IMG/VR virus record: IMGVR_UViG_2563366870_000004
Location: 1 to 42,584 of that record
DNA length: 42,584 nt
Strand: one strand, 5' to 3'
From: a virus
Lineage: Duplodnaviria > Heunggongvirae > Uroviricota > Caudoviricetes
Part shown: positions 7,842 through 9,951 of the stretch, piece after piece
Layout of the letters: every line of letters starts with the position of its first letter
Numbering within the stretch: the stretch's first letter is position 1
The notes under the pieces: generated by a model
What the model was told of the DNA's origin: nothing
Databases searched by the model: none
Seen by the model: the letters and a program-made list of their open reading frames with translations, nothing else
Translations under genes and position numbers: made by a program

Positions 7842-8114
7842 ATGGAGAAGATTAAGATGCAGCAGTATCACTATCCACTGGAAGACGGATTTACCGAAAG
7901 GATTCACACGCCGGGAGGCGTCAGGTCACTGGTGGAGGGATCGCACTTGATGAAATTACTCCGGGATCTCGATAAGGATGGATTTAATGTCGATGGCCCA
8001 CTTGCCGAACTGACTGCACTGATTAACTACGTCACCAGCTCACAGATGTCTATGCAGGATCTGCAAACACATCTCGACTATTGTGCCGAACAATTACGAA
8101 AACAAACCCGGTAA
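7842..8114 (+). CDS. Small protein homologous to the C-terminal domain of the anti-repressor at 9256-9951
   Basis: LMKLLRDLDKDGFNVDGPLAELTALINYV...DLQTHLDYCAEQ aligns with LMNLLNQLQEDGHDVSGAAAELTTMFCYI...DIQTHAEYINDK. Confidence 0.5.
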   Translation: MEKIKMQQYHYPLEDGFTERIHTPGGVRSLVEGSHLMKLLRDLDKDGFNVDGPLAELTALINYVTSSQMSMQDLQTHLDYCAEQLRKQTR

Positions 8115-8121
8115 ATTTAAA

Positions 8122-8137
8122 GGCCGCAAGAGCGGCC
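8122..8137. terminator. Bidirectional hairpin between convergent genes
   Basis: GGCCGC-AAGA-GCGGCC perfect stem between the 8114 (+) and 8137 (-) gene ends. Confidence 0.5.
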
Positions 8138-8865
8138 TATCGTTTCGCTTTGTGCTCATCCCAGCACGTTTTGCACCATGCCATTAAGCCGTCCGCATTT
8201 TGATTATTAGGGTAAAAGCTGGTTCGTTTTCTGCGGACATTACAAATTGGGCACCACTTCATATGGCGTGTATTCTTTGGGCCATCGAGACACCTTGCAC
8301 ACCACTTAGTCAATCCATCTGGATTTTTTGACGATTTCCTGAATTTTTCATATGGAAGGTTTATTCTGCATCGCAAGCACTGCTTGCTACCACTTGAAAC
8401 TCTGTTAGCTGATTCTTCTTTTGGCGGCGATACAGAAGGTATTCTTGCTGGCTCTGATACTGCCTGAGGTGCTTTTTTAGATGACTGAGACGATATGTCA
8501 TCACCAGGGAATCTTCCATGATATGCCGGACGCGTTGACACTCCAGGTGGAAGCTCAGCTGTAAACGGCTTTGGCTGAATCAGTTGCCTCTCTTTTGCTA
8601 ACTCCTGCTGTTTATAATATGTCTGGATTACCGCACTATCATAAGCAGGAGGTGCGGAAATATTAGGCGCATTACCTCCAGTTTTTTGAAACTGAGTAGA
8701 GGTGTGTTCTATCACCTGTGTACGATTAATCGTTATCTCCCCATCTTCGGTCTTTATCGTTTTGTTATGATTAACGACCGTACGATCAGAGATCTTAGTC
8801 TTGTTCTGGTTGATAACGTAAATAATCACCGCAACCACACCAACAACTATCCAGAAAACTTCCAT
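8137..8865 (-). CDS. Membrane-anchored protein with tandem C-terminal CxxC zinc-ribbon repeats, unknown function
   Basis: N-terminal TM helix, Pro/Ser-rich linker, two repeats of CxxC-x17-20-DGL-x2-WCxxC; GAGGAAAA ribosome-binding site; palindromic operator-like site about 20 bp upstream. Confidence 0.55.
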   Translation of the reverse strand: MEVFWIVVGVVAVIIYVINQNKTKISDRTVVNHNKTIKTEDGEITINRTQVIEHTSTQFQKTGGNAPNISAPPAYDSAVIQTYYKQQELAKERQLIQPKPFTAELPPGVSTRPAYHGRFPGDDISSQSSKKAPQAVSEPARIPSVSPPKEESANRVSSGSKQCLRCRINLPYEKFRKSSKNPDGLTKWCARCLDGPKNTRHMKWCPICNVRRKRTSFYPNNQNADGLMAWCKTCWDEHKAKR

Positions 8866-8884
8866 TGCTTTTCCTCACAATAAC

Positions 8885-8901
8885 ATTACCTTAAAGGTAA
8901 T
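8885..8901. promoter_or_regulatory. Operator-like palindrome ATTACCT-TAA-AGGTAAT (perfect)
   Basis: Perfect 7-3-7 inverted repeat in the divergent intergenic region between 8137-8865 (-) and the anti-repressor (+). Confidence 0.6.
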
Positions 8902-8977
8902 ATCTTGCTTTCAGGTGATCAAGCGTTAAACGCAATCAACCAAATACGGTTGATTTTTATATTTATCAGCGTTTATC

Positions 8978-8994
8978 ATTACCTTTGCGGTAAA
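8978..8994. promoter_or_regulatory. Degenerate operator-like site ATTACCT-TTG-CGGTAAA
   Basis: 2 mismatches to the palindrome consensus; 93 bp from the site at 8885. Confidence 0.4.
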
Positions 8995-9107
8995 TTTACA
9001 TCGCACTCCTCTTGTGCCATAGTAATCGAGCACTGGCAAAATCCAGTGCCGGGATTTGCACCCCGGATTACTAAAAGGCGCATACCACGCCAGACGTGGT
9101 TTTTTTA
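8995..9107 (+). ncRNA. Candidate small structured RNA / leader element upstream of the anti-repressor gene
   Basis: Three successive hairpins (CACTGG..CCAGTG, CCGGG..CCCGG, CCACG..CGTGG) ending in a T-run; overlaps a low-plausibility ORF 8905-9243. Confidence 0.3.
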
Positions 9108-9255
9108 TGCGTATAGCACAGTCATGCCAGAATTATGGTGGGACGTGCAGGGGCACCGAAAGGTGCGCCGGGTCCTTTTAGCCGGTAGTGCAAACCCTGT
9201 ACGTCTCACCACCAACGAGATTTGCACCTCAGGTGGTGATTAACCATACTAAAAG

Positions 9256-9951
9256 GTGATTGCCATGACTGCTAACGTAACCCCATCTGTTTTTCATTTT
9301 GAATCAGAAGCAACCATTCGAGCCATTGTTATTGATGGAAATCCTTGGTTTGTTGCCAAAGACGTTATTAAAGCTCTTCAACTGACAAACCCCACCATGT
9401 CAATCAAATCTCTTGATGATGATGAAAGGGCTAAATTTAACTTAGGTCGTCAAGGCGAAACCAATATTATCAGCGAGTCAGGCCTCTACACACTGATCCT
9501 CCGCTGCCGCGATGCGGTGACACCAGGCACTATCCCCTACCGCTTTCGTAAATGGGTTACAGGTGAGGTTCTTCCTCAGATCCGCCGCACCGGAAGTTAC
9601 ATTAAAAACTCGCTCCCGCAGGAAGAACGCATAAAGATGGTTGCCGACCAGGTAGCCAACGCCACAGCATCAGCAGTGATGCAGGCGATGAAGATAGAGA
9701 ACAAAACCTACAGTGCCCCGCTGAAGCCCGGCTACCGCAGCCTGATTCACTCGCCGTCTGGTGTTCTCGGCCTGACGGAGAACTCACTGCTGATGAATCT
9801 GCTGAACCAGTTACAGGAAGACGGGCACGACGTATCGGGCGCGGCGGCGGAGCTGACCACCATGTTCTGCTACATCGTCGGTGTGAGCAAATGCCTGCGT
9901 GATATCCAGACGCACGCGGAGTATATCAACGACAAAGCAGGGTTCTTCTGA
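9256..9951 (+). CDS. Anti-repressor with Bro-N-type N-terminal domain
   Basis: Bro-N-like motifs IRAIVIDGNPWFVAKDV, SESGLYTLI, FRKWVTGEVLPQIRRTGSY; C-terminal domain shared with 7842-8114. Confidence 0.7.
   Translation: MIAMTANVTPSVFHFESEATIRAIVIDGNPWFVAKDVIKALQLTNPTMSIKSLDDDERAKFNLGRQGETNIISESGLYTLILRCRDAVTPGTIPYRFRKWVTGEVLPQIRRTGSYIKNSLPQEERIKMVADQVANATASAVMQAMKIENKTYSAPLKPGYRSLIHSPSGVLGLTENSLLMNLLNQLQEDGHDVSGAAAELTTMFCYIVGVSKCLRDIQTHAEYINDKAGFF

Follow-up and report, generated by a model that had tools for sequence, protein, structure and literature searches.

The closest described relative of the system analysed here is the Rep-Ant pair of the Salmonella phage SPC32H, whose complex is PDB 5D50 and whose sequence record annotates the homologous genes as ant and rep. 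According to PMC9638917, SPC32H Rep is tetrameric when it binds DNA, and an Ant tetramer takes two Rep dimers and so breaks the Rep tetramer. In PMC9986798 the target of Ant is the C-terminal tetramerisation domain of Rep, and PMC7380047, citing Kim and Ryu 2013, has Ant made after LexA self-cleavage. Antirepression instead of repressor self-cleavage is therefore a known property of this phage group. Here we analysed a 42,584-nucleotide (nt) stretch, IMG/VR virus record IMGVR_UViG_2563366870_000004 (the window), which is a complete phiV10/epsilon15-type (Uetakevirus) Escherichia coli prophage. Its ant region is 92-96% identical to TL-2011b, phiV10 and their relatives. The best explanation overall, to which we give a probability of about 0.8, is a Rep/Ant antirepression switch whose link to LexA has been broken by an insertion sequence (IS), ISEc53, and which has gained a second antirepressor controlled by a C4 antisense RNA.

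The system resembles that of SPC32H (Kim and Ryu 2013, J Virol; Kim et al. 2016, PNAS; PDB 5D4Z and 5D50) in several ways. Both phages are Uetakevirus, the small Ant proteins are 88% identical, the Rep proteins have the same architecture with no cleavage domain, and ant lies beside the tailspike gene. SPC32H carries a LexA box at -39, as do the relatives of this prophage. In contrast, Rep is only 43% identical to its SPC32H counterpart, which makes this a different immunity type, and SPC32H has neither the Bro-N::Ant-like gene nor the C4 control of the E. coli members; its LexA box is unsplit. Coliphage 186 Tum and the Gifsy/Fels-2 antirepressors (Lemire et al. 2011, PMC3121763) are further parallels. 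There too a small LexA-repressed antirepressor acting on a non-cleavable repressor relays the SOS signal, but we found no sequence relationship between these proteins and Ant, and a second, paralogous antirepressor under an antisense RNA is unreported for them. Relative to SPC32H, three features would be new: a second antirepressor of the Ant fold under C4 control, a LexA operator split by an IS, and, of greatest interest, the apparent homing of that IS to SOS boxes.

The prophage encodes homologues of SPC32H Rep and Ant

The original prediction had held that induction of this phage proceeds by antirepression rather than by RecA-mediated autocleavage of the repressor. Homology to the characterised SPC32H pair bears this out, and the switch being textbook for the phage group, the finding chiefly corrects annotation. 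The prediction missed that RecA should still act in the relatives, by way of LexA upstream of ant.

The small gene ant (7857-8114, plus strand) codes for an 85-amino-acid (aa) homologue of SPC32H Ant, as identified with PDB 5D50_E, tblastn and PHROG phrog_450. The product of 7842-8114, a 90-aa open reading frame (ORF), matched 5D50_E ("Anti-repressor protein") with E 4.4e-47, aa 7-89 aligning to chain residues 3-85, so that the small protein is matched end to end by the 86-aa crystallised Ant. The 88% identity to SPC32H ant was obtained with tblastn. We found a free-standing ant of 85-86 aa in all 35 of the related phage records and in about 130 Enterobacterales protein clusters, including Salmonella phages such as SPC32H and epsilon15 that have ant and are devoid of the Bro-N fusion described below. 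Most records label the gene "hypothetical", PHROGs lists phrog_450 as "unknown function", and the Ant family has no Pfam family.

The start codon of ant is most likely ATG 7857 (MQQYHY...). GGAG stands nine bases upstream, and the same start is annotated in TL-2011b, phiV10 and RefSeq WP_001188252.1. The upstream ATG 7842 overlaps this GGAG Shine-Dalgarno sequence and is probably unused; one extra T puts it in frame with ant in the window, whereas TL-2011b, phiV10 and the E. coli prophage L029 lack this T and have the ATG in another frame. The coordinates proposed earlier were essentially right, with two starts to be trimmed: from 7842 to 7857 here, and from 9256 to 9265 in the Bro-N gene.

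The repressor gene rep (36669-37253, plus strand) encodes 194 aa and is a homologue of the non-cleavable SPC32H Rep. Residues 1-190 of 194 aligned to 2-197 of PDB 5D50_A with E 3.5e-42, and the C-terminal domain, responsible for tetramerisation and Ant binding, matched 5D4Z with E 3.6e-20. Identity was 42.7% to SPC32H rep and 99.5% to the phiV10 repressor. Of the two predicted helix-turn-helix (HTH) domains, one gave a clear Pfam HTH_3 match at aa 106-147 (E 1.2e-9) and the other, an N-terminal YdaS-type HTH at aa 21-61, a weaker match below threshold (20.9 bits against a cut-off of 30). The further claim that the repressor lacks an S24 self-cleavage domain held up. A Pfam search gave no Peptidase_S24 match at E <= 0.1, direct reading of the Rep sequence found zero Ala-Gly or Cys-Gly dipeptides, and its PHROG matches were exclusively HTH regulators. 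Because the alignment to 5D50_A runs end to end, there is no room in the protein for a cleavage domain. Divergent from rep is a gene for a 76-aa Cro-like regulator (36284-36514, minus strand; phrog_35 "transcriptional repressor", E 5.6e-13).

As a separate observation, the E. coli and Salmonella phages of the group share far more of their Ant sequence (88% identity) than of their Rep sequence (43%). Because Ant is conserved while Rep has diverged, the antirepressors may cross-act on heteroimmune relatives, as reported for Gifsy prophages.

The window has 14 matches to a TTACC-N5-GGTAA palindrome, of which 12 are exact, where 0.8 would be expected. The matches cluster at three loci, with the remaining copies in a few other intergenic regions. 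One copy, TTACCTTTCAGGTAA (5872-5886), lies upstream of the ant promoter region and is now left of the IS. Two more (8886-8900 and 8979-8993) precede the transcription unit of isrK, C4 and the Bro-N gene, and another (10017-10031) is downstream of the Bro-N gene. The third cluster comprises 36551-36565 (one mismatch) and 36599-36613 between the cro-like gene and rep, and 37311-37325 and 37373-37387 downstream of rep. The GenBank record of epsilon15 annotates the corresponding site, in front of gp19, as "protein_bind repressor, lysogeny". We infer that these palindromes are most likely the Rep operators.

ISEc53 splits the LexA box upstream of ant

The LexA (SOS) box of gamma-proteobacteria is a CTGT-N8-ACAG palindrome with an AT-rich spacer and the consensus TACTGTATATATATACAGTA. 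A near-consensus LexA box precedes ant, 39-40 nt before its start codon, in SPC32H (TACTGTATGTTTATACAGTG), epsilon15 (TACTGTATGTTTATACAGTA), TL-2011b (TACTGTATATTTATACAGTT), phiV10 (TACTGTGTATTTATACAGTT) and E. coli prophages such as L028 (TACTGTATAAATATACAGTT); L028 and L029 both have an intact box at the same place. In the window the two halves of this box are about 1.9 kb apart. The left half, TACTGT, is at 5924-5929 and the right half, ACAGTT, at 7831-7836, both on the plus strand and both read from the junction sequences. Between them the junctions read TACTGT-ATAAACAT-IS-ATAAACAT-ACAGTT, the 8-bp target-site duplication ATAAACAT being the spacer of the LexA box (left copy 5930-5937, right copy 7823-7830).

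The inserted element is ISEc53 of the ISL3 family, 1885 bp long (5938-7822, plus strand), with terminal inverted repeats GGGTCTTCCCC.../...GGGGAAGACCC. Copies that are 99.7% identical carry the RefSeq name "ISL3-like element ISEc53 family transposase", and the same ends occur in other contexts. The element codes for a 406-aa ISL3-family transposase (6574-7794, plus strand; Pfam DDE_Tnp_ISL3 E 1.3e-58, HTH_Tnp_ISL3 and Zn_ribbon_ISL3) and for a 172-aa passenger (6037-6555, plus strand) that is ClbS/DfsB-like (Pfam DUF1706 E 3e-54; RefSeq "ClbS/DfsB family four-helix bundle protein"). Its right end is 35 nt from ATG 7857 and 20 nt from ATG 7842, which puts the insertion upstream of the gene and not inside it.

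Rebuilt with one copy of the spacer, the empty site occurred uninterrupted in 127 complete E. coli genomes when 708 nt were compared, and in 477 when 94 nt were. In this empty site the ant ORF is intact and has its own Shine-Dalgarno sequence and LexA box. The exact spacer of the window, ATAAACAT, was found in no empty site among the complete E. coli genomes, the best being one mismatch off. Only one complete genome, that of strain TUM13064, has ISEc53 at this site, and there the spacer is ATAAATAT. The two duplication copies agree with each other both in the window and in TUM13064, while the spacers of the two differ. We also considered whether the IS had cut a Bro-N gene and left the 90-aa ORF as its 3' end, and rejected this: the ORF in front of the transposase gene is the ClbS-like passenger, and ant is intact in the empty site.

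No intact CTGT-N8-ACAG was found near ant or near the Bro-N gene, and neither IS junction retains a LexA box. Because the box is split, the junctions have none and no other box is nearby, LexA control of ant appears to have been lost. By descent, ant is a member of the SPC32H-type family, with its regulation altered in this prophage. We rejected two further exact CTGT-N8-ACAG matches, at 23703 and 28258, as LexA sites: two matches do not exceed chance (0.62 expected), the spacers contain GC and the flanks are poor.

A second antirepressor-type gene is under predicted C4 RNA control

The Bro-N::Ant-like protein (9265-9951, plus strand) has 228 aa, with Bro-N at the N-terminus and an Ant-like domain at the C-terminus (about nt 9691-9933). 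Pfam placed Bro-N (PF02498) at aa 21-107 with E 1.5e-19 and 70.8 bits against a cut-off of 25.6, and the C-terminal 77 residues (aa 150-226) matched PDB 5D50_E with E 1.1e-13. Its PHROG matches were phrog_130 "anti-repressor Ant" and phrog_450, and the fusion retains the motif columns that Ant proteins conserve. The start codon of the gene is most likely ATG 9265 and not GTG 9256, in agreement with RefSeq homologue WP_000126409.1. Full-length Bro-N::Ant relatives were found in only 18 phage records. There are two Ant-like places per genome in the E. coli and some Klebsiella members, and one in SPC32H, epsilon15 and SPN1S. Strain TUM13064 has this C-terminal module fused to ORF6N instead of Bro-N, and the Ant-like domain is on this account a portable module.

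Upstream of the gene we found the parts of a C4 circuit. A promoter-like site, TTTACA-17-CATAGT, TG-extended (8995-9023, plus strand; a consensus match only), abuts the operator-like palindrome 8979-8993, and the transcription start predicted from it falls near the 5' end of an isrK-like RNA. This leader (9030-9106, plus strand) matched Rfam RF01394 with 67.4 bits against a gathering score of 50. It carries the C4 target copies a1 (9055-9061) and b1 (9071-9078), which as RF03163 c4-a1b1 scored 36 bits, below the gathering score of 46.7, and it ends in a terminator made of a hairpin and a U-run (9084-9106). The C4 antisense RNA itself (9131-9216, plus strand) matched Rfam RF01695 with 77.8 bits against a gathering score of 45, over model positions 1-87 of 87.

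Directly after it, at 9221-9256 on the plus strand, are the targets a2 (UUUGCAC, 9221-9227) and b2 (CUAAAAGG, 9249-9256), to which C4 positions 9188-9194 and 9174-9181, respectively, are exactly complementary. The single strand GUGCAAA (7 nt) of C4 is complementary to a2 and a1, and its hairpin loop CCUUUUAG (8 nt) to b2 and b1. The b2 target covers the AAAGG Shine-Dalgarno sequence of the Bro-N gene, 8 nt before ATG 9265.

This arrangement shares elements with the P1/P7 immI region (c4 - icd - ant): a leader with a1/b1, the C4 RNA, and a2/b2 on a downstream ribosome-binding site. It also resembles isrK-orf45-anrP of Gifsy-1 in having an isrK-like RNA above an antirepressor-type gene; there, anrP is driven from the isrK promoter by partial read-through of the terminator (PMC4825925). 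Unlike in P1/P7 and Gifsy-1, no icd- or orf45-like ORF stands between C4 and the antirepressor gene, an icd-like leader ORF being absent between 9217 and 9264. The system differs from P1 Ant also in that the C-terminal domain of the antirepressor has the SPC32H Ant fold, and in that Rep-operator-like palindromes flank the promoter. We read the layout as a variant of P1 immI in which the target is directly on the antirepressor gene, and the Bro-N::Ant-like protein as a probable second antirepressor on a different control circuit.

A model for the switch and its alternatives

In the model that we favour, lysogeny would be held by Rep, a two-domain HTH repressor incapable of self-cleavage, acting on the TTACC-N5-GGTAA sites. 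In the relatives, DNA damage would lead to RecA-stimulated cleavage of LexA and to new synthesis of Ant, which would disable Rep with the phage repressor left uncleaved. In the prophage studied here, ISEc53 separates ant from the Rep-operator-like site and from the probable -35 region. The gene would then no longer be regulated by LexA, and the prophage would probably be blind to the SOS response. The Bro-N::Ant-like protein would presumably also inactivate Rep, answering a signal other than LexA. Its synthesis would be governed by the Rep-operator-like sites at its promoter and by C4 RNA from its own leader, pairing with the ribosome-binding site. E. coli members would accordingly have two antirepressor-type proteins with one Rep-binding fold (for the fusion, a predicted property), one with LexA and the other with C4 RNA as its input, and thus offer a compact natural example of one repressor hearing two signals.

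Four points weigh against this model. Rep is 43% identical to the characterised SPC32H Rep, and the binding of Ant to Rep is here proposed by homology. For the Bro-N fusion, Rep binding is likewise an extrapolation, and the Ant-like domain could merely tetramerise. A consensus scan gave no sigma-70-like ant promoter in the empty site or at either IS junction, and where the -35 and -10 of ant lie relative to the LexA box is our guess. Finally, the ClbS gene, the transposase gene and ant are co-directional with no intrinsic terminator between them, just a hairpin with an 8-bp stem and no U-run between the transposase stop codon and ant, and read-through could express ant.

The last point leads to an alternative in which the IS makes ant constitutive or IS-driven, by read-through or from the old promoter without its operator, and raises spontaneous induction. 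Were the -10 element of ant placed within the AT-rich spacer, a complete promoter without a LexA site would remain at the left junction. Yet a lysogen constitutively making Ant should not survive, and for this reason we favour ant being silent, or at least SOS-blind, over its being read through. The prophage looks intact, a near-identical insertion persists in TUM13064, and neither junction shows a consensus promoter. We therefore regard constitutive expression as doubtful.

Oligomerisation could also be the main role of the Ant-like domain in the Bro-N protein, which would then be a DNA-binding or other effector of the Bro-N type, or form mixed tetramers that tune Ant, rather than oppose Rep independently. 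Ant is a tetramer and the shared fold could serve assembly, the module is portable, as its junction to ORF6N shows, and the fusion is only 42% identical to Ant. The control region speaks for an antirepressor instead, since Rep-operator-like sites together with C4 on the ribosome-binding site are the P1-type mode of antirepressor control. PHROG families of this architecture are annotated as antirepressors, and the fusion has retained the conserved Ant motif columns. This alternative is, in our judgement, unlikely.

The original prediction had turned the relation around, with the Bro-N protein as the real antirepressor and the small protein as its truncated paralog, a decoy or modulator. It was right that the two share a C-terminal domain: BLASTP aligned the products of 7842-8114 and 9256-9951 without gaps over aa 3-80 and aa 146-223, with 33 of 78 residues identical (42%, E = 7e-17), well beyond chance, and both match PDB 5D50_E. 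The small gene, 20-35 nt from the end of the IS, may also at first sight seem to have been cut by it. Truncation is nevertheless very improbable and contradicted by the sequence, given the end-to-end match to the 86-aa Ant, the independent gene in 35 phage records and about 130 clusters, also where the fusion is missing (SPC32H, epsilon15), and the intact ORF of the empty site with its Shine-Dalgarno sequence and LexA box, upstream of which the IS went in. Because of the full-length match and the free-standing gene even in phages without the fusion, we conclude from these comparisons that the small protein is the canonical antirepressor and the Bro-N fusion an extra, uncharacterised one.

ISEc53-family elements insert into probable LexA boxes across genomes

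IS1397 and ISKpn1 home to the palindromes of repetitive extragenic palindromic sequences and bacterial interspersed mosaic elements (REP/BIME), inserting at a fixed position in a short motif repeated in the genome. The ISEc53-family insertions follow a related pattern, with the difference that the motif is a transcription-factor operator, the LexA (SOS) box, and that the element belongs to the ISL3 family and often has a passenger gene. We scanned three public collections for the left end of the element; the flank sampling is biased towards left flanks. CTGT stood exactly 8 nt from the inverted repeat in 66 of 84 distinct left flanks, where about 0.3 would be expected, and most of the others were one base off. 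Among distinct true right flanks, 22 of 27 had N8-ACAG. The left flanks came from many genera, and there were complete copies with matching 8-bp duplications. Position frequencies at the targets gave tA-CTGT-(AT)4-ACAG-T, identical to the LexA consensus of E. coli.

Among 47 target-adjacent genes, Pfam identified six for UmuD-like S24 proteins, three for DinI, two for colicins and two for SbmC/GyrI-like proteins, one each for a DinB-type polymerase, YebG and a Qnr-like pentapeptide protein, and three for P4-type integrases. Because genes of the SOS regulon adjoin them and the consensus matches, the targeted sites appear to be real SOS operators.

The further ISEc53 copies that were retrieved also lay within LexA boxes, and the chromosomal sbmC promoter was one such target. 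A copy there read TACTGT-ATATAAAA...ATATAAAA-ACAGTA, and its empty site, when rebuilt, matched many E. coli genomes with 100% identity across 300 nt. The sbmC promoter was not one contiguous stretch in 288 of 5,418 matching complete E. coli genomes, several of the best ISEc53 matches were located at it, and its LexA box was occupied by ISEc53 in many E. coli genomes, in both orientations (locus L004 versus L114). A copy in a lambdoid prophage read TACTGT-ATAAATAT...ACAGGT. The length of the element ranged from 1315 bp without a passenger (L007, L034, L038 and L051) to about 4 kb with various passengers, among them proteins of 116 aa, 233 aa and 149 aa, the last GNAT-like by eye.

Two other accounts of the pattern were tried and rejected. 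One, dropped as a general rule, was that a fixed orientation lets the IS use SOS promoters to drive its passenger gene; SOS genes are found on either side of it, and the sbmC box is occupied both ways. The other was that CTGT/ACAG lies inside the 36-nt inverted repeat ACTGTATAAACATGGG...; other copies show variable duplicated 8-mers and empty sites.

That the whole pattern is an artefact, with CTGT...ACAG a part of the element or a few insertions inherited, is scarcely credible: BLAST alignments of ISEc53 copies do run a few bases past the inverted repeats, but the 8-mer separating CTGT from the inverted repeat varies among copies and recurs at the opposite end, ant and sbmC both have empty sites with just one CTGT-N8-ACAG (100% over 300 nt at the latter), and the 84 distinct left flanks span many genera, with the sbmC box hit in both orientations.

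The targeting pattern is strong in these sequence data; its novelty and mechanism are provisional readings. We lean towards the view that ISEc53 and its ISL3 relatives sharing the GGGTCTTCCCCTGTTGTGGTGG end are SOS-box-homing elements of a kind not yet described, which either read CTGT-N8-ACAG directly or use DNA-bound LexA as a guide. The literature that we searched held no description of LexA-box targeting by ISEc53 or ISL3 elements, which is not proof of novelty. In bioRxiv 10.1101/2025.11.17.686825, a clbS-like gene with an ISL3 transposon is described "near otherwise unrelated genes" and LexA is unmentioned.

If true, SOS-box homing would be a new kind of target choice by an insertion sequence. 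Because the target motif is the LexA operator, each insertion would disrupt the SOS control of a gene: the antirepressor gene in this prophage, and elsewhere umuDC, dinI, dinB, sbmC, yebG, colicin and qnr-like genes. The SOS regulon of Enterobacterales would be rewired recurrently, with effects on mutagenic polymerases, a gyrase inhibitor, colicins and qnr, and prophages would be locked or unlocked. The ISEc53-type element is widespread and a known vehicle of clbS-like colibactin-immunity genes. Its commonest E. coli version, with the colibactin-immunity-like gene, could both blunt genotoxin damage and cut the wake-up of a prophage by DNA damage.

Two further groups of genes were seen at the targeted sites. 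In lambdoid prophages L003 (3413-3613) and L143 (2148-2327), close to the DUF1367/Q-antiterminator region, the targeted LexA box is immediately followed by a gene for 59-66 aa (MNIQESIGELPETCRAV...), which may encode a further small prophage regulator under LexA control. Five distinct integrase genes of the P4 type with MAVRKL.. N-termini (L010, L034, L051, L062 and L078) stand 4-40 nt from a targeted CTGT-N8-ACAG, which suggests that these integrases of P4-type islands are LexA-regulated.

Neighbouring genes in the window

The window further encodes an integrase, RecT/YqaJ, and replication, terminase, lysis and tail functions, and on this basis the prophage looks intact. Downstream of ant, a GC-rich terminator-like hairpin (8121-8138) lies between ant and a convergent gene at 8137-8865 on the minus strand. 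The latter codes for a 242-aa protein of phrog_6762 (unknown function), with weak matches to endonuclease VII and Lar-like PHROGs at aa 142-241, an N-terminal hydrophobic segment (by eye) and two C-terminal zinc-ribbon-like motifs. Some relatives have the gene; in TL-2011b it is pseudogene-like, and phiV10 retains a 68-nt remnant of it. It is probably an accessory gene outside the repressor/antirepressor switch.

Elsewhere in the window, a GC-rich stretch of about 300 nt, with no convincing ORF and no match to an Rfam family, separates the operator-like palindrome at 27728-27742 from tRNA-Arg(UCU) at 28065-28141. At 10058-11133, 3' of the Bro-N gene and of the palindrome 10017-10031, are two genes of unknown function, for a 69-aa protein (phrog_5739) and for a 288-aa protein (phrog_3630) that looks membrane-associated, with a hydrophobic N-terminus by eye. 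This pair may be accessory genes expressed in the lysogen.

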